Shown in pieces: positions 11,847 through 36,704 of a stretch of 44,367 nucleotides of DNA; position 1 is the first letter of the stretch, and each line of letters opens with the position of its first letter. The notes below the pieces were generated by a model. The model saw only the letters and a program-made list of their open reading frames with translations, searched no databases and had not been told where the DNA came from. Source of the stretch: Gemmatimonadota bacterium (GTDB lineage Bacteria; Gemmatimonadota; Gemmatimonadetes; Longimicrobiales; RSA9); assembly GCA_019347975.1 (NCBI GenBank), contig JAHWKI010000001.1, positions 1 to 44,367 of the forward strand. Direction: 5' to 3'. A program made the position numbers and the translations under genes.

Positions 11847-12896
11847 CTACCCGGCGGCGGCGCGCACGATCCGAGCCGCCACCTCGTACGGTGTGACCTC
11901 CCCGGCGTCGAGAGCTTCCAGACTCTTCTCCAGGATGGCTCCTCCCTCGCCGTCCTGCCAGACCCGCAGGAGCAACGACTGATGGACCGCGTCCCGCACC
12001 CGCTCCTCCAGCCGGGCGCGACGCCGCCGCACGAGCTCACCGGTCTCCTCCAGCCACGCGGTATGCGCGTCGAGGGCCGCGAGGAGCTCCGGTAGCCCCT
12101 CTCCTCCCTCCGCCTGGGTGAGCAGCACGGGAATCTCCCATGCCCGGTGCTCCGTCGAAGTCGAACTCGAAGTCGAACTCGAAGTCGTCTTCTTCCCCGC
12201 CCTCCGGAGGTCCACGCCGTGGTGCGCCGGGATGTTCCGCATGGCCTGGCCCATGCGCAGGTGGAGCATCATCTCCACCTCCCTGGCCAGGCGCGGGGCG
12301 CCCGGACGATCGGCCTTGTTGATGACGAAGAGGTCCGCGGCCTCCATGAGCCCGGCCTTCATGGTCTGGATGGAGTCGCCGGATTCGGGGACGAGGACGA
12401 CGACGGTCGTATCGGACGCCGCGGCGATGTCCAGCTCGCTCTGGCCCACACCCACCGTCTCGACGAGGATGACCTCGAAGCCGTACGCGGCGATCACGTC
12501 GATCACCTCGCGGGTCGCCGCGGCGAGCCCGCCGAGGGCGCCGCGCGTCGCCATGGACCGGATGAAGACACCCTCGTCGCTGGCGACGTCGTTCATGCGG
12601 ATCCGATCGCCGAGGAGCGCCCCGCCTGTGTAGGGGGAGGTCGGATCCACGGCGACGACGCCGACGGTCTGACCGCGCTCGCGAAGCAGGCGGATCAGGT
12701 TGGACGTGATGGTGCTCTTCCCCGCCCCGGGCGGACCCGTGATTCCGATCCGGCGCGCGTTTCGGCCGCCGCCGTGGAGCTCGTGGAGGAGCTCCTGGAA
12801 GCCCTCGCGCTGATTCTCCACGATGGAGATCACGCGGGCGAGGGCGGCGCGCTGACCGGCGCGGAACCGGGCGAGGAGGTCATCGTGCTGCGTCAT
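11847..12896 (-). CDS. meaB: Mutase-associated G-protein chaperone MeaB/ArgK family
   Basis: GITGPPGAGKST P-loop and VAVDPTSPYTGGALLGDRIRM signature. The ORF runs up to 12998, but the ATG at 12896 (MTQHDDLLARFRAGQRAALARVISIVEN) matches normal family N-termini. Confidence 0.88.
   Translation of the reverse strand: MTQHDDLLARFRAGQRAALARVISIVENQREGFQELLHELHGGGRNARRIGITGPPGAGKSTITSNLIRLLRERGQTVGVVAVDPTSPYTGGALLGDRIRMNDVASDEGVFIRSMATRGALGGLAAATREVIDVIAAYGFEVILVETVGVGQSELDIAAASDTTVVVLVPESGDSIQTMKAGLMEAADLFVINKADRPGAPRLAREVEMMLHLRMGQAMRNIPAHHGVDLRRAGKKTTSSSTSSSTSTEHRAWEIPVLLTQAEGGEGLPELLAALDAHTAWLEETGELVRRRRARLEERVRDAVHQSLLLRVWQDGEGGAILEKSLEALDAGEVTPYEVAARIVRAAAG
12154..12189. repeat. 12-mer/hexamer tandem repeat gtcgaagtcgaactcgaagtcgaactcgaagtcgtc, in frame inside meaB (encodes TTSSSTSSSTST)
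   Basis: Read directly. Reverse-complement orientation relative to the repeats at 1151 and 2536. Confidence 0.75.
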
Positions 12897-12906
12897 GTAT
12901 GGGGCG

Positions 12907-12935
12907 AATGTCCGGAGCGCGGCGGGATCTGTCAA
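12907..12935 (-). promoter_or_regulatory. Candidate sigma70-like promoter for meaB: TTGACA-17 nt-GACATT, ending ~10 nt before the 12896 ATG (would give a near-leaderless mRNA)
   Basis: tgtcaa at 12930-12935 and aatgtc at 12907-12912 on the plus strand, 17-nt spacer. Sequence match only. Confidence 0.25.
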
Positions 12936-13009
12936 ACGCCCGCGGTGATCCGTCCGAGGTGGCCGGAAAGGCGGTGGCAGGTCAATATGCGGGTTCATTT
13001 TTCCGGGAG

Positions 13010-13954
13010 GTGCGGCTGAGATCCAGGGCCAGGAGGTGGATCCTCGTGATGGGGGCGATGAGCGGCCTGTCCGCCTGCGAAGACGGGACGGAGCCGCTGG
13101 TGACGCGCCCCAGCCCGCTGGCGGGGGCCTCCTTCTATGTGCCCTACCCCTCCGACGCCTCGAGACAGGCCGAAGCGTGGCGGGCCGACCGGCCGCTCGA
13201 CGCGGCGGCGATGGACAGGATCGCTTCGGAGCCGAGAGGGGTGTGGCTCACCGATTCCGATCCGCTGCCGGAGCTGACCGGGACGCTCGCGGCGGCGGAG
13301 GAAACCGGCACGGTCCCGGTCTTCGTCGCCTATTACATCCCCCAGCGGGACTGCGGGGGCGAGGGGGCGGCCACGCCGGCGGCGTACGCCGAGTGGATCC
13401 GGACGGTGGCCTCGTCGCTGGAGGGACGGGAAGCCGTCGTGGTGGTGGAGCCGGACGCACTAGGGCACCTCGAGTGTGAGGGGGTGCGGCGAGCGGAGCG
13501 GCTGGCCGTGCTGCGGGACGCGGTCACGGTGCTGAAGTCCGCCGGGGCGGTCGTCTACCTGGACGGCGGACACCCCGACTGGCTGAGAGTGGCGGACGCC
13601 GCGGAGCGGCTCGAAGCGGCCGGGATCGACGACGCGGACGGCTTTTCGCTGAACGTCGCGAACTTCGTCGACACCGGTGAGAACGTGGAGTACGGGCAGG
13701 CGGTGGCCGCTCTCCTCGGGCCGACGGGGTTCATCATCGACACGAGCCGCAACGGCGCCGGGAGCGCTCCGGACGGTGAGTGGTGCAACCCTCCCGGCCG
13801 GAAGCTCGGCGCCGCTCCGACGACCGAAGCTCTCTACCCGGCGGTCGACGCCCTCCTGTGGATCAAGCGGCCAGGCCAATCCGACGGCACCTGCAACGGG
13901 GGCCCCCCCTCCGGGGAGTGGTGGCCGGAATACGCGCTGATGTTGGCCGGCTGA
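13010..13954 (+). CDS. Glycoside hydrolase family 6 (beta-1,4-glucanase-type), lipoprotein, no CBM
   Basis: Both GH6 signatures are present: VAYYIPQRDCGGEGA and VVVVEPDALGHL. Also FIIDTSRNG and LWIKRPGQSDG. A GTG start at 13010 gives VRLRSRARRWILVMGAMSGLSAC (lipobox LSAC). The ORF track starts it at 12899. Confidence 0.85.
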   Translation: MRLRSRARRWILVMGAMSGLSACEDGTEPLVTRPSPLAGASFYVPYPSDASRQAEAWRADRPLDAAAMDRIASEPRGVWLTDSDPLPELTGTLAAAEETGTVPVFVAYYIPQRDCGGEGAATPAAYAEWIRTVASSLEGREAVVVVEPDALGHLECEGVRRAERLAVLRDAVTVLKSAGAVVYLDGGHPDWLRVADAAERLEAAGIDDADGFSLNVANFVDTGENVEYGQAVAALLGPTGFIIDTSRNGAGSAPDGEWCNPPGRKLGAAPTTEALYPAVDALLWIKRPGQSDGTCNGGPPSGEWWPEYALMLAG

Positions 13955-14057
13955 GCCGCGTTCGGCCCCTTTCGGCACGACATTTGACCTGATGTCAGAG
14001 GACCGCTCCGGGCCGGGCGCGGGTATGTGCCCGTAGACCCTTCAAGGAGGCAACCTC

Positions 14058-15146
14058 TTGCGGCATAACGAGAAAAGGCACCACGCCGAGCGGCGGCGCC
14101 ACCAGGGGCCGTGGTGGAAACCGGACCGGCGCAGCATCGCGCCCGCGCTCATGGGCGGACTCTCGACCCTGATTCCGGGGCGTGCGGCCCCGGCGGCGCC
14201 CCCGGCCATGGCGGCGTCCGAGCCGGGACGGGAGCCACCGGAGCGGGAGGTCGCGACCGCGACGAGCAAGCTCACCCGGACCACACTGCACGTCCCTCGC
14301 AATGAAAAGGCGGAGCGACAGGTCGCGAGCTGGCGCAAGAGCCGCCCCGAGGACGCGCGGCTGCTCGAACGCATGCTGTCCCAGCCGACGGCGTCCTGGT
14401 TCGGAGACTGGAACCGGGACGTACGGGCGGACGTGAACCGGCTGGTCACGGAGGCGGCGAAGAACGGCTCCGTTCCGGTCATGGTGGCGTACAACATCCC
14501 CAACAGGGACTGCAACCAGTATTCGGCCGGCGGCGTCGGTGACGCCGCGGAGTACCGGAGCTGGGTGCGCCAAGTCGCCGCCGGGATCGGGGATCGTGAC
14601 GCCGTGGTGATCCTCGAGCCGGACGCGGTGGCGCTCGTCTCCTGCCTGACGCAGGAAGGCCAGGCCGAGCGCTTCTCGCTCATCCGCGAGGCCGTCTCGC
14701 TGCTGAAGAAGGAGAGCGGTGCGACCGTCTACATCGACGCCGGTCACGCGCGGTGGGTCCCGGAAGAGGAAATCGCCCAGCGTCTGCACCTGGCCGGGGT
14801 CGACCTGGCGGACGGATTCGCGCTGAACGTTTCGAATTTCCTCGGCACGGCGGAGAACACGGCGTACGGTGAGCGCGTGGGCCGCCGACTGGGGAACCCG
14901 CACTTCGTGATCGACACCAGCCGGAACGGCGGGTCGGTGGCGGACGGGGAATGGTGCAATCCCGCTGGCGCGGCTCTCGGCCAGACCCCGACGACGGAAA
15001 CACGGCATCCGCTCCTGGACGCGCTGCTCTGGATCAAGCGGCCCGGAGAGTCGGACGGGACGTGCAACGGCGGCCCGCCCGCGGGTGAGTGGTGGGGTGA
15101 ATACGCGCTCGGGCTCGCCCGTGGGGGGACGCGCCTGGCCGGCTGA
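14058..15146 (+). CDS. Glycoside hydrolase family 6, second tandem paralogue
   Basis: VAYNIPNRDCNQYSAGG and VVILEPDAVAL signatures; FVIDTSRNG; LWIKRPGESDG. TTG start 7 nt after AAGGAGG (14044-14050). The N-terminus has an RR-containing signal-like region. Confidence 0.85.
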   Translation: MRHNEKRHHAERRRHQGPWWKPDRRSIAPALMGGLSTLIPGRAAPAAPPAMAASEPGREPPEREVATATSKLTRTTLHVPRNEKAERQVASWRKSRPEDARLLERMLSQPTASWFGDWNRDVRADVNRLVTEAAKNGSVPVMVAYNIPNRDCNQYSAGGVGDAAEYRSWVRQVAAGIGDRDAVVILEPDAVALVSCLTQEGQAERFSLIREAVSLLKKESGATVYIDAGHARWVPEEEIAQRLHLAGVDLADGFALNVSNFLGTAENTAYGERVGRRLGNPHFVIDTSRNGGSVADGEWCNPAGAALGQTPTTETRHPLLDALLWIKRPGESDGTCNGGPPAGEWWGEYALGLARGGTRLAG

Positions 15147-15173
15147 CGACTTCAAGCAAGAAAGCGAGCTTCT

Positions 15174-16418
15174 GTGCACTCTGGAAATACGTGGGTCCTG
15201 GGATCCGCGGCGGCGTGGGCGCTGCTGTCCGTCGTGATCGTGGCCGCTCCGGTATGCGGGCAGGGGGACCAGGGGCGGTCGGGCCCGCTGGGTGAGTCGG
15301 TGGACGGTCCGATGATGGACGCCGCGCGCACCGCCTGGCGGTTCATCGAGGAGAACACCGACGAGGGGACCGGGCTGGTGCGGGCGACGCCGAACTACCC
15401 GAACGCCACGACCTGGGACATGGGGAGTGGTCTCGCGGGGCTGTACTCCGCCCACGAGCTGGGCATCATCAATGACGCGGAATACGGGCGGCGGATGGGA
15501 CAGATGCTCGCCACCCTCGCGGAGCTGCCGCTCTTCGACGGGGTCGCCTACCACAAGGTCTACGCGGTGGCGAACGGCGCGATGGTGGACAACGAGGGTG
15601 ATCCGGACCGCGACGGGTACGCGTGGTCGGCCACCGACCTGGGCCGCTTCCTCCTCTGGCTGGCGATCATCGAGCGGTCGGACCCGGAGCACGCCGAGCT
15701 GGCGCGCCGTGTGGCCCGGCGGGTGGATCCATCCCGGATCATCAAGGACGGGTACCTCTACGGTGAGGACAACACCCGCTCCCAGCCCTTCCTGGAGGGC
15801 CGGATCGGGTACGAGCAGTACGCGGCGCGGGGGTTCGCCGCGTGGGGCTGGCGCGCGGAGAAGGCGCTGAACCTGATGACCAACGCCGATCCCGTCGACG
15901 TCTGGGGTTACACGATCTATGAGGACGGGCGAGGGCTGGACCGCGTCGTGAGCGAGCCGTTCGTGCTGATGGGTCTGGAAACCGGCTGGGACGACTCGAC
16001 CCGCGCGCTGTCCGGCCGGCTGCTGGACCTGCAGGAGGAGCGCTACAAGCGGACAGGCCAGGTGACCATCGCCAGCGAGGACGCCGTGGACGTCGCGCCC
16101 CACTACTTCTACTACTACTGCATCTACTGCAACGGCAAGCCGTTCGTGGTCGACATCCACACGCCGGGACAAACGCTGGACGAGCCGCGGTGGGTCAGCA
16201 CGAAAAACTCCTTCGGGTGGCACGCGCTCCTGCCCCGGCCGTACACCGAGCTGGCGGTCGAGACGGTGCAGCCGGCCCGGACGTCCCGCGGCTGGCAGTC
16301 GGGCGTATTCGAGAAGAGCCACGAGCCGACGGGGACCCATGACGTCAACACCGCGGCGATCATCCTGGAGGCGGCGCTCTACGCCAAGCGGGGCGCGCCC
16401 CTGCTTCCGGAGGGCTGA
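15174..16418 (+). CDS. Secreted DUF3131-like protein (probable alpha/alpha-barrel glycoside-hydrolase-like fold)
   Basis: 414 aa, GTG start, signal peptide WVLGSAAAWALLSVVIVAAPVCG. ...ATTWDMGSGLAGLYSAHELGII... resembles DUF3131 family proteins from memory. Not verified by search. Confidence 0.55.
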   Translation: MHSGNTWVLGSAAAWALLSVVIVAAPVCGQGDQGRSGPLGESVDGPMMDAARTAWRFIEENTDEGTGLVRATPNYPNATTWDMGSGLAGLYSAHELGIINDAEYGRRMGQMLATLAELPLFDGVAYHKVYAVANGAMVDNEGDPDRDGYAWSATDLGRFLLWLAIIERSDPEHAELARRVARRVDPSRIIKDGYLYGEDNTRSQPFLEGRIGYEQYAARGFAAWGWRAEKALNLMTNADPVDVWGYTIYEDGRGLDRVVSEPFVLMGLETGWDDSTRALSGRLLDLQEERYKRTGQVTIASEDAVDVAPHYFYYYCIYCNGKPFVVDIHTPGQTLDEPRWVSTKNSFGWHALLPRPYTELAVETVQPARTSRGWQSGVFEKSHEPTGTHDVNTAAIILEAALYAKRGAPLLPEG

Positions 16419-16433
16419 GGGCGGCGCCGGGCC

Positions 16434-17672
16434 CTACGACCCGGCGGAAGCGCCTTCACAGGGGAGCGGACGTCCCTCGGCGCTCGGGTCGCCGTCCCCC
16501 GGCAGGACTTCGGACGGAGGCGGACCGCCCAGCGCGGCGTAGGCGTCCAGGAACGCCCGGGTGATCTCGTCGCGGGGGCAGGGGCGCGTGAACGGGACCA
16601 TGACCACGGTCGGTCTCGGAGCCTCCCGCACCTGACGAGCGAATCGGGCGACGCCCTGCGGATCGGCCGGGTCGTACGGCTGGAACCGGAAGGGAACGCC
16701 GTACTGCTGGAAGAGCCGCTTCCCCTCGGCGATCCACTCCCGCTGCTCCGGGTCGGCAGGGTCCATCATCATGAGGACGGTCTCCACCTGTCCGCCGAAG
16801 AGCTTGCTGAAGCCCTCGCGCTCGTTCGGATAGGGGACCACCCAGAGGTCCTCCGCGAGGACCTGGAAGTTGCCGCGCTCCATCAGGAAGCGACCCTCGG
16901 CGACCCGGTCGGCGAAGGTGCGGGGCGCCTTCAGGTCGCCGGCCGTGGCGACGCGGGCCTCCCCCATGCGCTCGACCATGGCCTTCACGACGTTGGCCCG
17001 GTCACGCCCGAGGCCGCAGTGCACGTAGTACTTCCCCGTTCCGCGCTCGACCAGGCCGCGGATCGTTTCCAGCGCCCCCTCGTTGTCGCTCACCCACGGG
17101 AGCATGGGCGCGTGCACGAACGGGATCCCGACGTTCCGGGCCGCTTCCTTCTCCGCGCGGATCCCCTGCAGCTCGATGGGGACGACGGCCGGGTGCTGGA
17201 GTGAGACGACGGCCGTGAAGCCGGCCTCCTTCAGCTCGCGCAGCCGCGCTTCGTCGGGGTAGGCGCCGAACACGAACTCCGGCCCCGCATCGAGGGCGAT
17301 CCGCGACTCCTCGCCGCCCGCTATGGCTGCGTACCTCGCGGGGTTGGACCACCCCCACAGCGCCAGCGATGCGAGCATGGTCGCGACGGCCGGGATGGCG
17401 AACCGCCCCGCTCCGCCGCGGAGGGACCGTCGCCACAGCCAGAGCGAGAGGAAGAACGAGCCGATGACGAACGCGGCCATGACCGCCCACATGGCGTAGG
17501 CCTCCATCCCGGCCGCGGCGCTGTCGCGGAGGAGGCCGGTCACGCCCCGCGCCGCGAACAGGAGCACCGCCGTCCCGGTCGCGAAGCCGATCATCAGCCA
17601 GAGGTACAGGAACAGCCCGACCTCCACCCAGCGCCGACGATCCGCCCGCGGGTTCCGCTCACCAACGCTCAT
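16434..17672 (-). CDS. 3-TM membrane-anchored dual-specificity/PTP-like phosphatase (CX5R) with a C-terminal degenerate phosphatase-like half, paralogue 2
   Basis: YYVHCGLGRDRANVV is the HCxxGxxR P-loop. N-terminal TM region GFATGTAVLL. The ATG at 17672 overlaps the upstream stop (ATGA). The ORF track extends it to 17720. Confidence 0.7.
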   Translation of the reverse strand: MSVGERNPRADRRRWVEVGLFLYLWLMIGFATGTAVLLFAARGVTGLLRDSAAAGMEAYAMWAVMAAFVIGSFFLSLWLWRRSLRGGAGRFAIPAVATMLASLALWGWSNPARYAAIAGGEESRIALDAGPEFVFGAYPDEARLRELKEAGFTAVVSLQHPAVVPIELQGIRAEKEAARNVGIPFVHAPMLPWVSDNEGALETIRGLVERGTGKYYVHCGLGRDRANVVKAMVERMGEARVATAGDLKAPRTFADRVAEGRFLMERGNFQVLAEDLWVVPYPNEREGFSKLFGGQVETVLMMMDPADPEQREWIAEGKRLFQQYGVPFRFQPYDPADPQGVARFARQVREAPRPTVVMVPFTRPCPRDEITRAFLDAYAALGGPPPSEVLPGDGDPSAEGRPLPCEGASAGS

Positions 17673-18829
17673 GATGCCGCCTCCGCCGCCTGCGCGGCTC
17701 GACCTCGCTCCCCCACCCACGCGCTCCGGAAGGTCCCGGCGATCGCCGATTCCCGTCCCGTCCCCGTGAACGGCACGATCACGGTCAGGGGTCGGGGAAG
17801 CCGGCGGGCGGTGCGCGCGATCTCGCTCGCCGCGGCCCCGTCTCCTCCGTCGAGGCTGCGGACGGTGTGCGGCACGTCGAACTGCGTCAGGAGCTCACGC
17901 GCGCTGGCCAGCCACTCCGCCTGCACCGGGTCTGCGTCATCCAGGAGGAGCAGCACGTGCTCCACCTGGCCGCCGAGCATGTGCCCGAACATCTCGTGCT
18001 TGTTCGGATAGGGGACGACCCACACCCCCTCCTCCAGCTCGATCGGCGGACCGCGCTCCAGGTCACCCAGCCCCTCCGCCTCGCGGTCGGCCCACGTGAG
18101 CGCGTCCTCGGTCGCCCCGTCGGAAGCCACCCTCCCGCCCATGCGCTCGATCACGCGCTGGACCACGCTCACCCGATCGCGGCCGAGCCCGCAGTGCACG
18201 TAGTACGTCCCTCCGTCCGCGCTCCTCACCAGCTCCCGGATCGTCTCCAGTGAGCGCTCGTTGTCGCTCACCCACGGCAGCATCGGGGCATGGACGAAAC
18301 GGATCCCCAGCTCCTTCGTCCACTCCTTCTCCCGCGCGATCCCTTCCGGCTCGAACGGCACGACCGCCGGGTGCTGCAGTGACACCACCGCCGTCACCCC
18401 CTCCTCCTTCAGCTGCTGCAGCCGCTCGCGGTCCGGGTAGGGTCCGAACAGGAACTGGCTCCCCGACTCCGTCACCATACGCTCACCGCCCCCCTCCACC
18501 CCGGCCACCGCGGAGTAGACGACAGGGTTCCGCCACCCCCAGAGCGCCAGCATGGCCGACCCCGTGACCGCGACCACGACCAGCCCTCGCACCGGGCGCG
18601 ACGGGTGTCGCAGGATGAGAACCCTGGTGAAGTAGAGCGCCAGCAGAAACGAGCCGCCGATGAACGACAGGATCACGACCAGCATCGCGGCGCGCTCTGC
18701 GCCGGGGGCGTCGAAGGCTTCGGTCACCCAGCGGGTCGGGCCCAGCAGGACGACCGTGCCCGTCGCGAATCCCACCATGAGCCATACGTACGCGAAGAGC
18801 AGGAATCGGGGGACAGAAGGACGATTCAT
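17669..18829 (-). CDS. 3-TM membrane-anchored dual-specificity/PTP-like phosphatase (CX5R) with a C-terminal degenerate phosphatase-like half, paralogue 1
   Basis: YYVHCGLGRDRVSVV P-loop. Colinear with paralogue 2 (GFATGTVVLL, AVVSLQHPAVVP, FVHAPMLPWVSDNE, WVVPYPN). Confidence 0.7.
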   Translation of the reverse strand: MNRPSVPRFLLFAYVWLMVGFATGTVVLLGPTRWVTEAFDAPGAERAAMLVVILSFIGGSFLLALYFTRVLILRHPSRPVRGLVVVAVTGSAMLALWGWRNPVVYSAVAGVEGGGERMVTESGSQFLFGPYPDRERLQQLKEEGVTAVVSLQHPAVVPFEPEGIAREKEWTKELGIRFVHAPMLPWVSDNERSLETIRELVRSADGGTYYVHCGLGRDRVSVVQRVIERMGGRVASDGATEDALTWADREAEGLGDLERGPPIELEEGVWVVPYPNKHEMFGHMLGGQVEHVLLLLDDADPVQAEWLASARELLTQFDVPHTVRSLDGGDGAAASEIARTARRLPRPLTVIVPFTGTGRESAIAGTFRSAWVGERGRAAQAAEAAS

Positions 18830-18855
18830 GTGTGGCCGCTGGGGCGCGAGTCAAA

Positions 18856-18867
18856 AAACAATTGTTT
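18856..18867. promoter_or_regulatory. Perfect 12-bp palindrome AAACAATTGTTT in an AT-rich island of the divergent phosphatase/OMP intergenic region. Candidate operator.
   Basis: Read directly. An adjacent imperfect inverted repeat gcatgtgcaacgcgtatgc lies at 18877-18895. Confidence 0.4.
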
Positions 18868-19008
18868 CTGACGAATGCATGTGCAACGCGTATGCCACGT
18901 TATGGCCGCAGCCGCGGAGCCGGGCGACGTGGCAGACTCTTTGCTTCACAGCACCGCTCACGGCCGATCGGGGATCGGCGGAACCGTCATGAATGAAGGA
19001 AAACGGCG

Positions 19009-19722
19009 ATGAGAAGTGCGTATAGACTGAGTGGGCTGGGAGCGTTGGCTGTCGTGATGGGGCTCGGGGCGGCTCCCGATCGGCTGGAGGCGCAGCTCGA
19101 CTGGACCTCGGCGTCGACCGTGGAGACGGCCGGGGACGACGTGACGTTGATCTACACGCAGCTGAGCGTGAAGCCGGACCGCCGTGGCTTCGTGCCCGTG
19201 GCGTCGGTGAGCCTGTACCGGCTGGAGACCGCCTCCGGCGGCACCTGGTCGACGACGCCGGCGGTCGGAATGGAATACCGCGCGCGGACCGGCATGGTGA
19301 GCGGGAAGGTGGGCTACAGCTTCAAGAGCGACGACGTGGTGGTGCCCTTCTTCGGCGGGAGCGGATCGGGAGTGACGACGAGCCTGCACGGGGAGCACTG
19401 GGGCACGGGACAGTTCGGCCTTCAGGGGATCGGCTCGTACAACTGGGGCTCGGACTACCTGTGGAGCCGTGCGCGGGGAACGGCCCGGGTGAGCGACCTG
19501 CGGGAGGGGGCGCTGCACGTGGGCGCCGAGTACGTGTGGCAGGGGGAGCTGGACAGCCCCGCCGGAGCGACGGGGTACCGGGCCACGCAGTTCGGACCGG
19601 TCGTGCAGTACATCACCCGTGACGGGGGTCCGATCGTGGCCGTGGGCGGGGGCTGGAAGGACGACAACCTGGGAGAGGACGACACCTGGTACGCGAAGGC
19701 GGAGCTGGTCCTCTCCTTCTGA
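19009..19722 (+). CDS. Small outer-membrane beta-barrel-like protein (possibly BcsS-like)
   Basis: 237 aa. Signal peptide ...LGALAVVMGLGAAPDRLEAQ, alternating hydrophobic/aromatic beta-strand pattern, Gly/Tyr-rich, C-terminal ...AELVLSF (terminal Phe typical of OMPs). Confidence 0.55.
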   Translation: MRSAYRLSGLGALAVVMGLGAAPDRLEAQLDWTSASTVETAGDDVTLIYTQLSVKPDRRGFVPVASVSLYRLETASGGTWSTTPAVGMEYRARTGMVSGKVGYSFKSDDVVVPFFGGSGSGVTTSLHGEHWGTGQFGLQGIGSYNWGSDYLWSRARGTARVSDLREGALHVGAEYVWQGELDSPAGATGYRATQFGPVVQYITRDGGPIVAVGGGWKDDNLGEDDTWYAKAELVLSF

Positions 19723-19734
19723 CCCGGGTGGCGG

Positions 19735-20481
19735 TCAGCGCAGCAGGAGCCACGCGACGAAGGATGCGGCGACCTGGACGGTGAGGTTGTCGAGGCCGTG
19801 GCTGCTGAAGGCCTCGACCGCCGCGCCGGCCGCGCCGCAGGCGAGGCCGACGCCGAGGGCGAGGGGGAGGGCGAAGCCGAGGCCAAGGAGGACCGCAGCG
19901 GCGGCCGCGGTTCCGACGAACAGCACCGCGCCGCTCCCTTCGAGGCTGCGGGTCGCCCTGACGCCGGCGAGCGAGGGGACCTCGTAGCGGTGCTTTCCCC
20001 AGCGGGTCCCCACCGGCTCCCCGACCGCGTCGCCCCACCCCGTGACCATGTAGCCGACCGGGGCGAACGCGAAGAAGAGCAGGTTGCTGATCACCCCGCC
20101 GAGTGCGGTGGTGATGAGAGGGACCACGATGAAGAACGTTCGGTGCGGCGCATCGGTTGGACGCGCCATCGCCTCGTAGAACGGGAACCCCGAGCCCTTC
20201 AGGATGCCCACCACCACGACGGCGGCCGTGACGCTCCCGAAGACCACCACGCCGCTGAGCCCCCAGATCAGCTGGACGACGCCCGCAGCCGAGATGATGA
20301 TGAAGTGGAAGATCTTGCGGGTGTACGGCGCGCGCACGCCGCGCCGGATGCGAAGCCACCCCACGAGCGCCGCGGCCGCCGCCGCATAGAGGAGCGCGAG
20401 CGGGACGCCCGCGACCAGTTCTGTGGTCGAGGGTATGAAATCCCGTAGCCATGCGGGCAGCTGCGCGGCGAGCGCTTCCAT
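19735..20481 (-). CDS. Polytopic membrane protein of the CTP-dependent polyprenol/phytol/dolichol kinase - CDP-diglyceride synthase superfamily (COG0170-like)
   Basis: 248 aa, ~7 TM. The GWGDAVGEPVGTRWGKHRY...RSLEGSGAVLF motif pattern is typical of Sec59/VTE5-type kinases. Starts 25 nt after the bcsA-like stop. Confidence 0.6.
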   Translation of the reverse strand: MEALAAQLPAWLRDFIPSTTELVAGVPLALLYAAAAAALVGWLRIRRGVRAPYTRKIFHFIIISAAGVVQLIWGLSGVVVFGSVTAAVVVVGILKGSGFPFYEAMARPTDAPHRTFFIVVPLITTALGGVISNLLFFAFAPVGYMVTGWGDAVGEPVGTRWGKHRYEVPSLAGVRATRSLEGSGAVLFVGTAAAAAVLLGLGFALPLALGVGLACGAAGAAVEAFSSHGLDNLTVQVAASFVAWLLLR

Positions 20482-20506
20482 GAGGTACGTTCCGAGTGAG
20501 GCGGTC

Positions 20507-22849
20507 TCAGCCGACGGCGGGGATGGGGCCTGACCCGTTCAGGCGCCTGAGCCCCACCGAGAAGACGATACCCATGGGGGTGTCCATGGCATGCACGGCG
20601 ACGGCCTCGCCTTCGCCCTCCACCGTTCCGGCGGTGAACCGGACGAGCCCGCCGGGCGGCGGCGGCTGCGACAGGATGAGCCGCGCGCCATCCGAGCTCA
20701 TCTCCTCCAGGTAGCCGAGCTGCGCAGCGGTGCCCGTCTCGGCGCCATGCTCGTCCGGGAAGAAGACGTGTGCCGGGAGCCGAACGGTCTGGCGGGCGGC
20801 GCGCCGCGGGTCGGCGAGCAGCCTGCGAACCGGCTCCAGCGGGCGCTTGGTGTCGCGGAACTGGAGACGGTGCAGCGGCACGGCGTGGTGGGTGCAGTGC
20901 AGGTCGATGGCGTCCCGATCGTCGGGGGCCAGCGGATCCAGTCGCACCCCGTAGTCGTAGTACCGCTGGCTGCGCACGGTGATCTTCTCGCGGTGGACGA
21001 CCTCTCCTCTGACCTCGACGGGCCGGGTCTCGAGCGGGAGCACGAACCGGACACGTGAGCCGCGGTGGAATCGTTCGGCGGCCCGGAAACCCATCCCTTC
21101 CGGATTCAGATCCGTCGTGAGCACGACCACGCGGCGCGCGCGCTCGTCCTCGAGCCCTTTGTCGTCGAGGTCCTCCTCCGGGGCATCCTCGTCCTCCGCG
21201 TCACGAGACGGGATGATCTCCCCCTCGACGGCCATGAGGGCACGGAACCGCTCGTCCACGCGCTGCTGCCGGAACTCGAGGCTCAGCCGCACGACGTAGG
21301 CGGCGAAGTAGACGTTGTACGCGATCCAGAGGAAGTTGAACCAGAACGCGCCCGAGCCCCACCCCGGGGCGCTGTACTCGATCCATCCGCGCGCGTAGGC
21401 CACCGTCCCCCACACCACCGCGAGGATACTGACGACGAGGAGAACCAGCTGGGGAAGATAGCTCCGCAGGGGGACATCGCCGCTGGTCTTCGGCGTCACC
21501 TCGAATTTGAGCTTGCCGCGAGCGAAGAATCCCCTGATGGCCATGGTGTAGATCCAGAACTTGGCCATGTTGTAGCGCTCGGCGATCAGCATGAATCCCG
21601 TTCCGCGGAACAGGAGCTCGAACATGGCGAGGTTCAGGAGGAGGTACGGAATGAAGCGGATCAGGAAGTCCGCTTCATCCACCCAGATGGGTAGAACGCC
21701 GGTGAAGAAGAAGATGATCGGCGCGACATACAGGATCAGCTTGAGCGGCCCGTCGAGATAGGAGATCGTGGAGTCGAAATAGCAGATCCGCTGGGGCCAG
21801 GTGAGCCCCTTCCGGAAGAGCGGGTTGTACTTCCGGAGCACCTGCATGGACCCCTGCCCCCAGCGAAGGCGCTGGACCATGTACTGCCCGGCCGAGGCGG
21901 GAGCGAGCCCGTAGGCGAGGCTCTCCCCGTAGTAGATGGACTTCCAGCCGCGGGAGTGGAGGACGAGGGAGGTCTCCATGTCCTCCGTGATCGTCTCGGT
22001 GGAGAAGCCGCCGATCTCCTCGATGGCCGTGCGGCGGATCACCCCGCAGCTGCCGCAGAAGAACGCCGCGTTCCAGTGGTCCTTCCCCGGCTGGAGCAGC
22101 GAGAAGAAGATCCGCTGCTCTTCCCACAGCCGCCGCCCCTTCTCGTTCACGCTGTAGCTGAACGAGTTGGTGTTGTAGAAGTCCTGCGGCGACTGGACGA
22201 AGGCCACGTCGGGCTCTTCGAAGAAGCCCAGGAGGCTATCCAGCATGTGCGGGAGCGGGACGTGGTCGGCATCCAGCTGGAGGATGAACTCGCCGGACGT
22301 CTCCTTCAGCGCGTTGTTCAGGTTCCCGGCCTTGGCGTGCTCGTTCCCCTGCCGTCGGATGTAGCCGACACCCAGCTCCGAGGCGAGCTCACGCAGCGCG
22401 TCGCGCTTGCCATCGTCCAGGATGAACGTGCGGTGCGGGTACCGGATCGCACGGGCCCCGATCACCGTGCGCCTGATGATCTCCAGGGGCTCGTCGTACG
22501 TCGTGATGAAGACGTCGACATCGAGTCCCTCCGGGGCCGGTGGCGAAGTGCGCCGGTTCAGCGTCCAGACGGTGAACGTGGTCAGCAGGGCCGAGAACAG
22601 CACGTAGGTCTCGGCGGTGACCAGGGGGATCGAGAACCACCAGGCATCCCAGTTCAGCGTCCAGCCCCACCGCCAGATGATGTAATAGGCGCTGTAGAGG
22701 AGGGTCAGGACCGCGAAGAGCCGGACCAGCACCTCCGCCCAGGGCCGGAGGTGCGGCGTCGGGTCCCCCTTACTGCGGACCGGTACGTCGGAGGACTCGC
22801 GCGGCGACCCATCACCGGCACCGCGGAGGCCGCGGGGAGAGGCTTCCAT
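20507..22849 (-). CDS. bcsA: Cellulose-synthase-like processive GT2 (BcsA-type) with two C-terminal PilZ-like modules
   Basis: 780 aa. Motifs: FITTYDEP, ILDDG, HAKAGNLN, QLDADH, FFCGSCGVIRR, TEDMETS, QRLRWGQG. C-terminal RVDER...DLNPEG and RRAAR...EMSSDG (RxxxR / [DN]xSxxG-like). Confidence 0.88.
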   Translation of the reverse strand: MEASPRGLRGAGDGSPRESSDVPVRSKGDPTPHLRPWAEVLVRLFAVLTLLYSAYYIIWRWGWTLNWDAWWFSIPLVTAETYVLFSALLTTFTVWTLNRRTSPPAPEGLDVDVFITTYDEPLEIIRRTVIGARAIRYPHRTFILDDGKRDALRELASELGVGYIRRQGNEHAKAGNLNNALKETSGEFILQLDADHVPLPHMLDSLLGFFEEPDVAFVQSPQDFYNTNSFSYSVNEKGRRLWEEQRIFFSLLQPGKDHWNAAFFCGSCGVIRRTAIEEIGGFSTETITEDMETSLVLHSRGWKSIYYGESLAYGLAPASAGQYMVQRLRWGQGSMQVLRKYNPLFRKGLTWPQRICYFDSTISYLDGPLKLILYVAPIIFFFTGVLPIWVDEADFLIRFIPYLLLNLAMFELLFRGTGFMLIAERYNMAKFWIYTMAIRGFFARGKLKFEVTPKTSGDVPLRSYLPQLVLLVVSILAVVWGTVAYARGWIEYSAPGWGSGAFWFNFLWIAYNVYFAAYVVRLSLEFRQQRVDERFRALMAVEGEIIPSRDAEDEDAPEEDLDDKGLEDERARRVVVLTTDLNPEGMGFRAAERFHRGSRVRFVLPLETRPVEVRGEVVHREKITVRSQRYYDYGVRLDPLAPDDRDAIDLHCTHHAVPLHRLQFRDTKRPLEPVRRLLADPRRAARQTVRLPAHVFFPDEHGAETGTAAQLGYLEEMSSDGARLILSQPPPPGGLVRFTAGTVEGEGEAVAVHAMDTPMGIVFSVGLRRLNGSGPIPAVG

Positions 22850-22940: not shown

Positions 22941-24605
22941 CTATTCCCGGCGACGCTCCCGCTGCCCCAGTCCGCGGGCGTGCCGCATGGGGTTCTCCAG
23001 GAGGTGGGTGGGCAGGAGGAGGACGATCATGAAGAGAAGGAAGGCGGCGACGAGGCCTCCGGCGAGGACCCACCAGCTGGGGACCGCGATGAAGACGATG
23101 GCCGAGATGAGGGCCATGGTCGCCGCGAAGAGGGAGAGCTGAATGCGGCGGACCTGGAGGGAGAAGAAGCGCTCGATCTGCATGAGATCGCGGGAGTGGA
23201 TGCGAACGCGGAGCTCCTCGCGGTCGAGGCGCTGGACGATGTCGCGAACGCCGGTGATGACGGACCGGGCGTCGTCGAAGACGTTGCGCGCGATCTCCGA
23301 CGGCTGTCGCGCGGCGACCCGCAGCAGCTCACCTTTCATCCGGCGGACGACGGCGCGGGAGATATCGAGGCCGTTGAACGCGGGATCGTAGCGGAAGCCG
23401 ATCCCTTCCAGGAGGGCGGCGGCGCGGAAGAAGTAGACGAGCTCGCGGGGGAGCATGAGCGGCCAGGTGTAGAACGTGTCCATGATCTCGGCGACCAGCT
23501 CCTGGACGCGGTGCTGGCCGAGGTCGCGGGCGCGCTCGACGGTGGCGAGGATCTCGGCGGCGGCATCACGGATCTCCGCGCGGGAGATGTCGGGGTCGAT
23601 CATCCCGAGCTCGTACATGCCGTTGATGATGCCGTCGACGTCCTCCCGGGCGGCGGCGAGGGCGATGCGGATGATGGTGTCGCGGGTGGGGGGCCGGAGC
23701 TGGACGACCATCCCCCAGTCGAGGAAGACGATGCGTCCCCGGGCATCGACCAGGAGGTTCCCGGGATGGGGGTCTGCGTGCATGATGCCCTCGACGAGGA
23801 GCATGCGGAGGTAGACCTCGGTGAGGGTCTCCATGAGGCCGCGGAACCGCAGCTCGCCGGACGCGAAGCGGGGGGCGAGGCGATCGATCCGCTCCCCATC
23901 CACCCATTCCATGACCAGGACCCGGCGGCGTACGAGCCCCTCGAGGACGGCGGGGGCCATCACGCGGCCATCGTCGCCGAAGTGGGTGAGGAACAGCGCC
24001 ATGTGGCGGGCCTCCTCGCGGAAGTCCATCTCCACGCGCACCCGCACGCTGAACTCCCGGACCACGTTGGTGAGGGCCTTCACGTGGTGGTTCGGGAAGA
24101 GGATGTTGAGGGCGTAGAGGATGCGGAAGGAGATCTCGAGGTCGAGGGCGACCAGGGCCTCGACCCCGGGCCGGAGCACCTTCACCGCGACATGGCGGTC
24201 GCCGACCCGGGCCCGGTGGACCTGGCCGAGGGAGGCCGCGGCGACCGGCTCCCGGTCGAAAGAGGCGAACACCGCGTCGAGGGGCTGCCCCAGCTCGGCG
24301 ACGATCACCGCCTCGATCGCCCCCGGCTCGTCCGGCGGAACGCGGTCCTGCAGGCTCGCGATCGCGCTGAGATACGGCTCGGGGAGGATGTCCGCCCGGG
24401 CGCCGAAGACCTGAGCCAGCTTGATGAACGTGGGCCCCAGGGCCGCGATCGTCGCCGTCAGCCGCTGCGCGCGGCGGCGATGCCTCTCGAGCGGGAGACG
24501 GCGCGGACGGCCGAAGAGGAGCCAGCGGCGCCGGTCGCGAAGGAAGGCGACCAGGAACGGAAAAAGCCTCAGCGCGATGCTGACGCTCCGGCGCCAGCGC
24601 CTCAT
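22941..24605 (-). CDS. ubiB: ABC1/UbiB (AarF) atypical kinase family protein
   Basis: ...LGPTFIKLAQVFGARADILP..., ...AAASLGQVHRARV..DRHVAVKVLRPG.... C-terminal TM helices. The ATG at 24605 overlaps the mgtE stop (ATGA). The ORF's N-terminal extension to 25121 is rejected. Confidence 0.85.
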   Translation of the reverse strand: MRRWRRSVSIALRLFPFLVAFLRDRRRWLLFGRPRRLPLERHRRRAQRLTATIAALGPTFIKLAQVFGARADILPEPYLSAIASLQDRVPPDEPGAIEAVIVAELGQPLDAVFASFDREPVAAASLGQVHRARVGDRHVAVKVLRPGVEALVALDLEISFRILYALNILFPNHHVKALTNVVREFSVRVRVEMDFREEARHMALFLTHFGDDGRVMAPAVLEGLVRRRVLVMEWVDGERIDRLAPRFASGELRFRGLMETLTEVYLRMLLVEGIMHADPHPGNLLVDARGRIVFLDWGMVVQLRPPTRDTIIRIALAAAREDVDGIINGMYELGMIDPDISRAEIRDAAAEILATVERARDLGQHRVQELVAEIMDTFYTWPLMLPRELVYFFRAAALLEGIGFRYDPAFNGLDISRAVVRRMKGELLRVAARQPSEIARNVFDDARSVITGVRDIVQRLDREELRVRIHSRDLMQIERFFSLQVRRIQLSLFAATMALISAIVFIAVPSWWVLAGGLVAAFLLFMIVLLLPTHLLENPMRHARGLGQRERRRE

Positions 24606-25975
24606 ATGAGAAAGCGCGTGGCCAGGCCGAGCAGGAGGAAGAAGCCGGCCACGTCGGTGACGGCGGTGACGAACACGGAGGAGGCCACGGCCGGGTCCGC
24701 GCCGACCCGCTCGAGGAGAACGGGGACGAACGCGCCGGCGACCGAGGCCACGATGAGATTCCCCCACATGGCGAACAGAACCACCGCGCCGAGTGCCCAC
24801 GTCCCGAACATGAAGTAGCTCCCTCCGCCGACGATCAGGCCGAGAGCGAGGCCGTTGACCAGGCCGACGACGACCTCCTTGGCGGCGACGCTCCAGCGGC
24901 GGGCGGCGGTCTCGCGGGTGAGGGCGAGGCGGCGGACCGTCACCGCGAGAGCCTGGGTGCCCGCGTTCCCACCCAGCGCGGCGATCACCGGCAGCAGCGC
25001 GGCCAGGGCGAGCATCTGGTCGATGGTGTCGGTGAACTGATAGATGACGAAGGCGCCGAGAGCCGCGGTGAGGGTATTGAGGGTGAGCCAGGGCAGCCGG
25101 CTCCGCACCGCTTCGGTCCACCCGCCCCGGACCTCCTCCTCCGACCCGATCCCCGCGAGGCGCAGGAGATCCTCCGTCTGCTCCGCTTCGATGACGTCCA
25201 TGACATCGTCCCAGGTGATCCGGCCCAGGAGGATGTTGTTCGGCCCCAGGACCGCCACGGACGGCTCGTTGTAGCGCGCGATGAGCCGACCGACTTCCTC
25301 CTGGTCCATGTCCACCGGTACGGTGATTACCGGAGGCTCCACCAGGTCGGCGATGGGGGAGCTCGGCTCGGCGATCACCAGGTCCTGGAGCGTGACGAGC
25401 CCCTGGAGGCGCCGGATCAGGTCGACGACGAAGATGTTGTAGAACTCCGTGTCCAGCTCCCGCGCCTGCCGCCGCACCTCCTGGATCGCTTCGCCCGCCG
25501 TCAGGTGGACGGAGATGGCGACCAGCTCGGTCGTCATGATCCCACCCGCCGAGTCCTCGGGGTAGGCGATCAGCTCCCGGAGCTCGCCCGCCTCGGTGGG
25601 GGCGAGGGTGGCGAGGACGCGCGCCTGGTCTTCGGGCTCGAGCTCTCCGATGAGGTCGGCCGCGTCGTCGCTGCTGAGCTCCCCGATCAGCTCCCCGATG
25701 CGCTCGGGATGGAAGCCGGCGAGGATGTCCTCGGGGTGCTCGTGCGCCTCCATCTCCGCCAGCGTGTCGGAGGCGACCTCGGCCGGGAGCAGGTCGAAGA
25801 CGCGGACGCGCTCCTCGTCGTCGTCCAGGTGCTCGATGAGGTCGGCGATGTCCGACGGGTGGAGGTCGTCCAGGAACGCGGTGAGCGCGATGTCATCACC
25901 GGCCTCGAGGAGCTTTTCCAGCCGGGCGAGGCGCTGCTGGGACTCCTCCACGTGCTGGAGGTCCGGAGTGCTCAA
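24602..25975 (-). CDS. mgtE: Magnesium transporter MgtE
   Basis: N-domain (acidic helices), CBS pair, and C-terminal 5-TM domain ...LLPVIAALGGNAGTQALAV.... A TTG start at 25975 overlaps the DUF502 stop. The in-frame upstream extension to 26764 is Arg/Pro-rich junk. Confidence 0.85.
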   Translation of the reverse strand: MSTPDLQHVEESQQRLARLEKLLEAGDDIALTAFLDDLHPSDIADLIEHLDDDEERVRVFDLLPAEVASDTLAEMEAHEHPEDILAGFHPERIGELIGELSSDDAADLIGELEPEDQARVLATLAPTEAGELRELIAYPEDSAGGIMTTELVAISVHLTAGEAIQEVRRQARELDTEFYNIFVVDLIRRLQGLVTLQDLVIAEPSSPIADLVEPPVITVPVDMDQEEVGRLIARYNEPSVAVLGPNNILLGRITWDDVMDVIEAEQTEDLLRLAGIGSEEEVRGGWTEAVRSRLPWLTLNTLTAALGAFVIYQFTDTIDQMLALAALLPVIAALGGNAGTQALAVTVRRLALTRETAARRWSVAAKEVVVGLVNGLALGLIVGGGSYFMFGTWALGAVVLFAMWGNLIVASVAGAFVPVLLERVGADPAVASSVFVTAVTDVAGFFLLLGLATRFLI

Positions 25976-36347: not shown

Positions 36348-36704
36348 GGGAAAGAAAGTACGCGGGACGGCACATCTTTGCGTCTCATCCGTGTGGAGCT
36401 TCCGGAGCGCAGACCGGCGCGGGTTCGCTGAACACGCGTTCCCCCAACGACTTGCCGGGTCGCGACCGGACGCTCGACCGGTCGGGCCCTCCGTTTGCCG
36501 CAAGGTCCCGCCGGCGAGCACCGCCCGCCATCACAACCGAACGACAGTGCGAACAACGCTGCTCAGAGCGAAGCCGTCGAAAGGCGGTGGCGCAGAGCTT
36601 CGGGGCTAAAGCGACGATCGTCGCCATGCCAGCCGGGCCGCCAGCGAACCCCCCGGGGGGCTGGCGCGCCATCCCTCCGCGGTATCCCAATCCAGGAGGC
36701 GTCG
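36348..36704 (+). promoter_or_regulatory. Long (357-nt) palindrome-rich intergenic/leader region upstream of the membrane protein + vWA operon
   Basis: ggtcgcgacc at 36458-36467. Hairpin cgaccgg-N8-ccggtcg at 36463-36484. Perfect 14-bp palindrome gcgacgatcgtcgc at 36611-36624. C6G6 palindrome at 36649-36660. AGGAGG at 36694-36699. Confidence 0.35.

Follow-up and report, generated by a model that had tools for sequence, protein, structure and literature searches.

Can a BcsA-like polysaccharide synthase work with a set of partners that includes neither BcsB nor BcsC? This question is raised by a locus of a soil Gemmatimonadota bacterium (contig JAHWKI010000001.1, positions 1 to 44,367). The whole stretch of 44,367 nucleotides is referred to as the window, and coordinates are positions within it unless preceded by the number of a relative's locus (L###); homologous proteins are numbered P####. 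In the window, a BcsA-like glycosyltransferase of family 2 (GT2) with two PilZ-like modules is encoded together with two glycoside hydrolases of family 6 (GH6a and GH6b), a secreted DUF3131 protein, a predicted outer-membrane barrel of 237 residues, two membrane-anchored phosphatases resembling protein tyrosine phosphatases (PTP) and a multi-pass membrane protein of 248 residues. An initial annotation had listed these genes and motifs, and all of them were located where it had placed them. It had also reported the absence of BcsB, of BcsC or another tetratricopeptide repeat (TPR) protein, of BcsG, BcsE and BcsQ, and of a GH8 enzyme. In agreement with this, a Pfam scan of the 31 main open reading frames (ORFs) of the 44-kb window, all but a few small ones, yielded no match to BcsB, BcsC/TPR, HlyD, BcsG/E/Q or GH8.

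We consider it probable that the locus encodes a conserved BcsA-like module, gated by cyclic dimeric guanosine monophosphate (c-di-GMP), for the synthesis and export of a β-glucan (probably β-1,4-linked), equipped with an accessory pair of proteins for a lipid phosphate. In the best-supported description of this module, the DUF3131 protein and a BcsS-like barrel form the core and replace BcsB, BcsC and GH8. Around this core lies a variable shell consisting of GH6 enzymes (duplicated here) or a GH26-like gene, of PIG-L/DUF5009 genes, and of the pair formed by the PTP-like and 248-residue proteins.

Conservation of the synthase neighborhood

The block of genes delineated in the initial annotation is retained in relatives. 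Contigs from sequencing-run assemblies with 87-96% identity to the window keep its exact gene order, including the MeaB gene at the left flank. A scan anchored on the synthase covered 10 Gemmatimonadota/Longimicrobiales genome loci. The synthase was directly adjoined by the barrel gene in 8 of these and by a DUF3131 gene in 7 (often in two copies); GH6 genes were found in 3 and a PTP-like gene in 2.

A scan of metagenomes starting from the PTP-like gene yielded 65 loci, which fell into two groups. Subfamily A is the group closer to the window, and 11 of its loci are flanked by 4 kb or more in each direction. In these loci the counts were 11/11 for a BcsA-like GT2 gene and for the barrel gene, 10/11 for DUF3131 and 7/11 for the 248-residue gene. 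In the loci of subfamily B, all four are missing. Vicinamibacterales clusters contain a DUF3131 gene, genes for two ankyrin-repeat proteins, a PilZ-less GT2 and a PAP2 protein, a homologue of the 248-residue gene, a PTP-like gene and a BcsS-like gene, as well as partner-switching regulators. The GT2 of these clusters is only 29-30% identical to the window synthase, indicating that the accessory set is common to two GT2 lineages. The linkage recurs in many independent loci and is conserved beyond chance.

In the related loci with Pfam labels or annotation, and among the conserved neighbors scanned, no Pfam family of the BcsB or BcsC type was listed; most other relative loci were screened only with the proteins of the window cluster. 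Literature searches outside subscription journals revealed no account of this type of cluster, either for Gemmatimonadota or in two surveys of Bcs and exopolysaccharide (EPS) operons. The cluster, uncharacterised so far, has the appearance of a new variation on polysaccharide secretion in bacteria.

The synthase combines BcsA motifs with tandem PilZ modules

The translated synthase contains TYDEP, ILDDG, HAKAGNLN, QLDADH, FFCGSCGVIRR, TEDMETS and QRLRWGQG, bearing out the claim of a complete BcsA-type motif set, and in addition the gating-loop motif FxVTxK in the form FEVTPK. The catalytic motifs of GT2 enzymes (D, DxD, TED and QxxRW) are present together with HAKAGN and FFCGS, as in BcsA. Pfam assigned GT2, Cellulose_synt and PilZ domains. 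BcsA structures matched residues 44-539 (E 6.6e-83), and the identity to E. coli BcsA was about 35% (35-36%) across the glycosyltransferase (GT) and transmembrane (TM) core.

The synthase was said to end in two PilZ-like modules. The first (PilZ-1; RVDER and DLNPEG, an S-to-N variant) was significant by Pfam (E 2e-8). The second (PilZ-2; RRAAR and EMSSDG) scored below threshold (E 0.018) and was recognized by its motifs, the RxxxR and [D/E]x[S/N]xxG pairs of both modules being kept in about 20 relatives. The enzyme thus shares with BcsA a gating loop and a C-terminal PilZ domain, the second PilZ being an extra feature.

Among genomes, the synthase has its closest relatives, with up to 56% identity, in metagenome-assembled genomes (MAGs) of Gemmatimonadota; next in rank are those of Longimicrobiales, Dormibacterota, Geobacteraceae and Terriglobales. 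Relatives with up to 60% identity (L038) are carried by metagenome contigs. In a neighbor-joining tree with bootstrap, based on the GT/TM core of GT2 sequences, the window synthase was placed in a Gemmatimonadota clade (bootstrap 64-88). This clade was separate from a group of E. coli BcsA and an Agrobacterium CrdS-like enzyme (bootstrap 90). The deep nodes were weak (22-40), so that the product is not assignable from the tree.

Two further gene arrangements were seen next to synthases of relatives. In some Gemmatimonadota (L004:7468-10241, L005 and L006), the synthase is followed directly by genes for an acyltransferase-like membrane protein (DUF5009) and a PIG-L deacetylase, and in Nostoc a PIG-L gene (L109:13284-13991) occupies the position equivalent to that in Gemmatimonadota. 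In L010, L018 and L019 (e.g. L019:11288-12712), the gene directly after the tandem-PilZ synthase encodes a membrane glycosyltransferase of the PMT/GT-C type. The hosts are Geobacteraceae, another deltaproteobacterial MAG and Terriglobales. Glycosyltransferases of this type use polyprenyl-phosphate sugars, and their presence is a hint of lipid-linked chemistry around the synthase clade.

The secreted hydrolases

The DUF3131 protein matched PF11329 with 320.6 bits (cutoff 20.3; E 1.7e-95) over positions 2-367 of the 367-position profile and carries a signal peptide, in line with its earlier description as a secreted DUF3131-like protein. Its alignment contains many invariant acidic residues, and we regard the protein as a putative periplasmic glycoside hydrolase. 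DUF3131 is the most constant partner of the synthase. In Gemmatimonadota, Vicinamibacterales, Pantoea and Nostoc, its gene stands beside genes for BcsA-like GT2 enzymes.

The two tandem GH6 paralogues had been identified by both GH6 signatures. Both are indeed members of the family: GH6a and GH6b matched Pfam Glyco_hydro_6 (PF01341) with 193 and 211 bits, respectively (cutoff 27; E 1.4e-56 and 3.8e-62), and the PxRDC and EPD motifs are readable in each. In GH6a the motifs read YYIPQRDCGG and VVVEPDAL. An LSAC lipobox follows RRWILVMGAMSG, indicating that GH6a is probably a lipoprotein. Note that the start of GH6a is uncertain. Its ORF spans 12899-13954 (+), and the likely start is either the GTG at 13010 or a codon at about 13046, near which the gene calls of relatives begin. 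The N-terminus of GH6b (DRRSIAPAL...AMA) contains a possible signal of the twin-arginine translocation (Tat) type.

GH6a is kept at 74-88% identity in L105 and L107, and GH6 genes adjoin the set of synthase, DUF3131 and barrel in L003, L005, L006, L094 and L113. In loci of the Longimicrobiales type, a GH26-like gene takes the place of GH6. In Streptomyces, the GH6 lipoprotein CslZ, which has no carbohydrate-binding module, is encoded beside cslA and needed for glycan deposition; characterised GH6 members cleave β-1,4 glycans (PMC9040799). The repeated occurrence of GH6 genes therefore points to β-1,4 links in the product.

A predicted outer-membrane barrel related to BcsS

The 237-residue protein has a signal peptide and ends in ELVLSF, as had been read from its translation. 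The AlphaFold2 model (pLDDT 89) shows the signal peptide followed by 12 β-strands. In a Foldseek comparison with the Protein Data Bank (PDB), the model gave 43 matches at E<=1e-3, and all those listed were outer-membrane barrels. They included OmpG, intimin/invasin, the β-domains of autotransporters, a COG4313 channel, an oligogalacturonate porin, FapF and the polysaccharide 'secretin' entry 4y25. The protein is thus predicted to be a 12-stranded outer-membrane β-barrel and is a candidate for the outer-membrane component of the system.

The family of this protein comprises only 42 clusters, with no Pfam domain or name among them. The window protein did not match Pfam PF17036 (CBP_BcsS) even at E<=10. 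In contrast, its positional equivalent in the Vicinamibacterales locus L031 passes the CBP_BcsS threshold (26.3 bits against 24). This equivalent aligned with the family of the window protein in hhalign (93% probability, E 3e-7), and a divergent family member matched the BcsS-like gene of L031 directly by tblastn (E 5e-5). The 237-residue protein thus appears to be a remote relative of BcsS, short of a demonstrated member. BcsS is an accessory of type I bcs operons (PMC8892547).

Two MAGs of Longimicrobiales, with 81% nucleotide identity to each other, lack a stop codon at the end of the synthase ORF, which runs in frame into the barrel gene (L009:1367-4624 and L011:9947-13039). The barrel part keeps its own methionine and signal peptide. 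Such ORFs are fusion-type evidence of a functional link. They may represent a genuine fusion, whose product could be cleaved at the internal signal peptide, or else a quirk of assembly or annotation shared by the two MAGs. A presumed third fusion, in L038, was rejected, the long ORF there being upstream read-through only. Even the barrel homologue that diverges most has DUF3131 and two GH6 genes at its sides.

Membrane-anchored phosphatases and the 248-residue protein

The claim of two tandem CX5R phosphatases with three TM helices was confirmed: each of the PTP-like genes encodes the helices and the motif HCGLGRDR. Phosphatase a has 412 residues counted from Met17 of its ORF, the length also called in relatives. 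The paralogues overlap by ATGA at 17669-17672, where the upstream stop meets the downstream start, an arrangement suggestive of translational coupling. Close relatives (L105-L107) and L002 also have the tandem duplication, and most loci contain a single copy. HCGLGRDR is invariant in an alignment of 74 homologues. The family comprises more than 515 homologue clusters and is found in Gemmatimonadota, Vicinamibacterales and Longimicrobium. Some of its members bear the name 'PTP superfamily phosphohydrolase (DUF442 family)' at the Joint Genome Institute (JGI).

By Pfam, the PTP-like protein remained below the threshold of PTP-SAK (22.6 against 27). The AlphaFold2 model of phosphatase b (pLDDT 90) consists of three N-terminal helices followed by α/β domains. 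The top-ranked matches in the PDB by Foldseek, including all of the first 16, were PTP-fold or dual-specificity phosphatases (DSP) with a probability of 1.0. Among them were DUF442, AtPFA-DSP1, TpbA, KAP, DUSP26 and the product-bound plant phosphatase 4kyq, which we take to be the glucan phosphatase LSF2. A CX5R P-loop on a predicted PTP fold is consistent with membership in the PTP/DSP superfamily. The charges of the loops (positive-inside rule) indicate an N-in, C-out topology, and the catalytic domain probably faces the periplasm.

The 248-residue protein had been described as a COG0170-type, kinase-like membrane protein encoded 25 nt downstream of the synthase. Its position was correct: the gene begins 25 nt after the synthase stop codon on the same strand. 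The family assignment is putative. The window protein itself had no Pfam match. CTP_transf_1 was detected only in 2/40 family members and the L033 homologue, at E 0.004-0.012, and the family profile found no match among PDB sequences. Homologues with 60-76% identity are named 'phytol kinase' by JGI.

An exhaustive phmmer search revealed that many of the best relatives of the 248-residue protein are C-terminal domains of longer proteins. P0165 (752 residues) and P0173 (981 residues) consist of an N-terminal PTP-like module with three TM helices, one or two extra soluble repeats and the C-terminal 248-residue domain. The fusion partner was read in these two proteins; many other top matches, 480-990 residues long, likewise end in the 248-residue domain. 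Ten of the long proteins were scanned without a Pfam match. An interpretation of the long matches as synthase fusions was rejected, as the N-terminus is the PTP-like module. The predicted N-out start of the 248-residue domain fits the topology of such a fusion. In Vicinamibacterales, a homologue with 60% identity is encoded immediately before the PTP-like gene and downstream of PAP2 in the same gene row.

The genes of PTP subfamily B are always located directly downstream of a lipid kinase gene of the DAGK_cat/YegS type (L051, L054-L075 and others; e.g. L068:9028-11218). Their neighbors are the lysine-pathway genes asd, dapB and dapA and aspartate kinase, with no polysaccharide genes nearby. 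Because of the fusions, the pairing with DAGK_cat and PAP2, and the predicted topology on opposite faces of the membrane, the PTP-like and 248-residue proteins most plausibly act on a lipid phosphate. The 'phosphatase/kinase component' of the initial annotation is thus upheld as a linked pair by the fusions and by co-localisation in many loci, but the 248-residue orthologues often occur in housekeeping contexts.

Comparison with known systems

In Bcs systems (BcsA-BcsB-BcsZ-BcsC, types I-III), as in the window, a processive GT2 with the full motifs, a gating loop and C-terminal PilZ is encoded beside a periplasmic glycoside hydrolase and an outer-membrane β-barrel, and BcsS is the nearest relative of the window barrel. 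BcsB, TPR-BcsC and GH8 were not found among the window ORFs scanned. DUF3131 and GH6 occur instead, and the place of BcsC is taken by a predicted barrel of 12 strands that has no TPR region. The synthase has two PilZ modules rather than one, and its scores do not reach the NCBIfam equivalog cutoffs. In addition, the window encodes PTP-like phosphatases and a phytol-kinase-like protein.

The CslA-GlxA-CslZ system of Streptomyces likewise pairs a BcsA-like synthase lacking BcsB with a GH6 lipoprotein (PMC9040799), and GH6a of the window has a lipobox. In contrast to Streptomyces, no copper oxidase of the GlxA type and no lytic polysaccharide monooxygenase (LPMO) was found by Pfam among the window ORFs scanned. 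Moreover, the window host is a diderm with an outer-membrane barrel and its synthase is PilZ-gated, and DUF3131 and the phosphatases are missing from the Streptomyces locus as described.

Uncharacterised loci in which one to three DUF3131 genes directly adjoin the synthase occur in other phyla. On Pantoea stewartii pDSJ10, a BcsA-like GT2 gene is located beside three DUF3131 genes. Nostoc flagelliforme pNFSY07 carries GT2 and DUF3131 together with PIG-L, STAS, SpoIIE and anti-sigma genes. In Klebsiella pneumoniae, accessory block 3b contains a cellulose synthase and DUF3131 (PMC12974863). However, the GT2 enzymes of these three are 29-33% identical to the window enzyme and have no annotated PilZ, and the annotation of these loci includes neither a BcsS-like barrel nor a PTP-like gene or GH6. 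The Vicinamibacterales, Nostoc and Pantoea loci have in common regulators of the STAS, anti-sigma-kinase or SpoIIE type, whereas the window is without partner-switching regulators.

BcsA-like GT2 enzymes that work without BcsB and BcsC and make non-cellulosic β-glucans are also known from the curdlan (CrdASC) and mixed-linkage (BgsAB) systems. Their partners are CrdA and CrdC or the HlyD-like BgsB, with no PilZ tandem and no DUF3131, GH6, barrel or phosphatase genes. The window GT2 shares 32% identity with a CrdS-like enzyme of Agrobacterium and, within the GT domain, 41% with a GT2 encoded on Sinorhizobium pSymB; we consider these probable homologues only.

The phosphatases share the CX5R Cys-phosphatase fold with DUF442, TpbA, PTPMT1 and LSF2/SEX4. 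TpbA, which is periplasmic, provides a precedent for this location. PTPMT1 is a lipid phosphatase, and LSF2 and SEX4 are glucan phosphatases. In contrast to these, the window domain has an anchor of three TM helices, an additional α/β domain following it, and a partner or fusion of the lipid-kinase type.

A possible mechanism

In the mechanism that we propose, c-di-GMP would bind to the tandem PilZ modules and open the FxVTxK gating loop of the BcsA-like GT2. The enzyme would polymerise uridine diphosphate glucose (UDP-glucose) to a β-glucan, most likely with β-1,4 links, and thread the chain through its own membrane channel. In the periplasm, the DUF3131 protein and the two GH6 enzymes, one of them a probable lipoprotein, may trim or release the chain, as BcsZ does in Bcs systems and CslZ in Streptomyces. 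The chain might leave the cell through the BcsS-like 12-stranded barrel or be anchored there; the barrel would thereby stand in for BcsC. Gene content, motifs, predicted folds, the conserved neighborhood and the gene fusions are results of the analysis. We infer from them which substrate is used and how it is linked, what the hydrolases do, that the barrel serves for export, and the whole lipid step of the phosphatase/248-residue pair.

The weakest step concerns the two periplasm-facing Cys-phosphatases and the COG0170-type membrane protein, which may act on a membrane lipid phosphate. Their likeliest job would be the recycling of a polyprenyl (di)phosphate carrier or primer that supports or modifies glucan synthesis; this is our preferred guess. 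Lipid-linked intermediates in bacterial cellulose-like synthesis are the subject of older proposals (reviewed in PMC8892547). A more specific scheme, which we regard as doubtful, would combine the periplasmic Cys-phosphatase and the cytoplasm-facing kinase-like protein in a dedicated carrier-lipid cycle for the BcsA-like synthase, with dephosphorylation in the outer leaflet, flipping and re-phosphorylation inside; the barrel would serve as a minimal exit pore replacing BcsC. If this were true, a polyprenyl-phosphate lipid would serve the glucan as primer or anchor or as the source of its decoration.

Evidence against the module and alternative explanations

Several observations weigh against the module as proposed, some of them directed at its coherence. 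In the closest genome relative (L001), the synthase stands alone, with none of the partner set. GH6 genes occur in a minority of the loci, and both GH6 and PTP-like genes are missing from many synthase loci. A barrel homologue (L114/L115) has no synthase nearby, and we know of no 12-stranded barrel that has been shown to export a polysaccharide.

Other observations of this kind concern the product, which may not be cellulose. It could be another β-glucan (mixed-linkage, or containing β-1,3 or β-1,2 links) or a modified or amino-sugar polymer, with DUF3131 acting as a dedicated hydrolase or transglycosylase. We regard this as a serious possibility, if on balance an unlikely one. The synthase lies outside the branch of E. 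coli BcsA and failed both BcsA equivalog thresholds, TIGR03030 (424.8 bits against a cutoff of 699.1) and PRK11498 (339.4 against 992), the matches spanning the GT and TM core only. Searches against plasmids by tblastn did not separate cellulose, curdlan and mixed-linkage relatives. The near-equal similarity of the synthase to E. coli BcsA, the CrdS-like GT2 and the pSymB GT2 leaves the linkage type open. The DUF3131 profile had a single, weak match among PDB sequences, 8wy1 ('Glycosyltransferase 36'; E 0.009), which we believe to be the GH189 cyclisation domain of a cyclic β-1,2-glucan synthase. The related (α/α)6 families GH144, GH162 and GH192-194 are β-1,2-glucanases (PMC12102758). The replacement of GH6 by a GH26-like gene points in the same direction, and PIG-L and DUF5009 after the synthase are a hint that the polymer of those lineages is modified or contains amino sugars. 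On the other hand, FFCGS, TED, QxxRW and FxVTxK are as in BcsA, and GH6 enzymes, with their β-1,4 specificity in characterised members, have been recruited repeatedly. We retain a β-glucan with probable β-1,4 links as the product of the module.

A second alternative divides the locus into two modules that travel together. The synthase, DUF3131 and the barrel would constitute the polysaccharide system, and the PTP-like and 248-residue proteins a general housekeeping pair for envelope lipids such as undecaprenyl phosphate, often located nearby but with no specific function in making the glucan. Orthologues of the 248-residue gene (68-75% identity) in other Gemmatimonadota adjoin NamZ/GH3 or MprF-like genes, i.e. 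contexts of peptidoglycan recycling or of the MprF type without a synthase. PTP subfamily B is found with DAGK_cat among dap/asd housekeeping genes, and most of the synthase-anchored loci have no PTP-like gene. A coincidental association is difficult to reconcile, however, with the presence of a BcsA-like GT2 and the barrel in every well-flanked locus of subfamily A, with the extent of this linkage over two phyla and two GT2 lineages, and with the location of the window 248-residue gene close behind the synthase on the same strand. We consider this alternative unlikely and favor the assignment of the pair to the variable shell of the module.

It is very unlikely that the locus is part of an ordinary Bcs system split over the genome, in which bcsB and bcsC outside the window partner the synthase and the local accessories are incidental. 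Split bcs loci are known, and only 44 kb of the genome are visible. Yet BcsB and BcsC are absent from the window ORFs scanned and not listed in the annotated loci of relatives, the synthase clade is apart from the BcsB-linked BcsA of E. coli, and the outer-membrane barrel is tightly linked to the synthase and fused to it in two MAGs.

Equally improbable in our view is a function of the PTP-like proteins as periplasmic signalling phosphatases that tune c-di-GMP or EPS, as TpbA of Pseudomonas aeruginosa does, or as glucan phosphatases of the laforin/SEX4/LSF2 type. TpbA and 4kyq (taken to be LSF2) belong to the best matches in structure, prediction places the catalytic domain in the periplasm, and the synthase is PilZ-gated. 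In contrast, Vicinamibacterales keep the PTP-like gene even though their GT2 has no PilZ, the Pfam scan of the window ORFs detected no diguanylate cyclase within the cluster, and the fusion to a phytol-kinase-like domain and the pairing with DAGK_cat and PAP2 point to lipids. Finally, a catabolic locus, in which GH6 and DUF3131 degrade cellulose beside an unrelated synthase, was rejected as the main explanation, as many lineages show the linkage again with their genes in shuffled order.

Implications

Gemmatimonadota and Vicinamibacteria abound in soil, and their matrix polymers have hardly been studied; the cluster offers a candidate for a c-di-GMP-controlled glucan in these groups. A BcsA-type synthase with neither BcsB nor BcsC in its cluster bears on what these 'essential' partners contribute. 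The locus also suggests a testable role for BcsS-like proteins and ties DUF3131 to BcsA-like synthases over at least five phyla, including Klebsiella and Pantoea. The fusion of phosphatase and kinase-like domains connects a polysaccharide synthase with lipid-phosphate metabolism. If this connection is functional, the question of lipid-linked intermediates would become experimentally approachable (PMC8892547).

Gene set of the window and flanking genes

The base composition of the window is 70% G+C. Frame analysis by third-position GC (GC3) backs all nine genes and a single gene set across the region.

Table 1. Genes of the cluster and its immediate flanks (positions in the window)
Feature	Position	Strand	Basis of assignment and remarks
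MeaB	11847-12998	-	GC3 and Pfam; left flank
GH6a	13010-13954	+	Pfam Glyco_hydro_6; probably a lipoprotein
GH6b	14058-15146	+	Pfam Glyco_hydro_6; possible Tat-type signal
DUF3131 protein, secreted	15174-16418	+	Pfam PF11329, signal peptide
PTP/DSP-like phosphatase a, membrane-anchored	16434-17672	-	CX5R motif, weak Pfam PTP-SAK
PTP/DSP-like phosphatase b, membrane-anchored	17669-18829	-	CX5R motif, AlphaFold2 and Foldseek
237-residue predicted outer-membrane barrel	19009-19722	+	AlphaFold2, Foldseek, hhalign
248-residue multi-pass membrane protein, 'phytol kinase'/COG0170-like	19735-20481	-	JGI names of homologues
BcsA-like GT2 synthase, tandem PilZ	20507-22849	-	Motifs, Pfam, BcsA structures
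ABC1/UbiB-like kinase	22941-25121	-	Pfam ABC1 (E 6e-65); membership in the system doubtful

The genes on both sides had been assigned to housekeeping operons. On the left, methylmalonyl-CoA mutase and MeaB were found by Pfam, as expected from the acyl-CoA mutase/meaB assignment. On the right, where ubiB, mgtE and phoH had been named, the ABC1/UbiB-like protein and PhoH were recovered. In contrast, mgtE was not among the right-flank ORFs scanned with Pfam, which encode ABC1, DUF502, a 7TM-HD protein, PhoH and AspRS.

The ABC1/UbiB-like kinase (726 residues) has a long, very basic N-terminal extension and a TM helix at the C-terminus; 92 nt separate its gene from the synthase, which follows downstream in the same orientation. 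In L003 and L094, homologues are encoded at a distance of a few kb from the cluster; most loci have none. We left the kinase out of the system, since it is seldom near the cluster in relatives.

A c-di-GMP-I riboswitch (RF01051) was detected at 36557-36645 (+) with 57.8 bits (gathering score 35; E 7e-9). It is located just upstream of an ORF at about 36705-37979 that encodes a multi-pass membrane protein with no Pfam match. This ORF is followed at 37981-38925 by a gene for a lipoprotein-like protein of 314 residues containing DVSGS, a motif resembling a metal ion-dependent adhesion site (MIDAS). The riboswitch and the two downstream ORFs are predicted to constitute a second unit of the window under the control of c-di-GMP.

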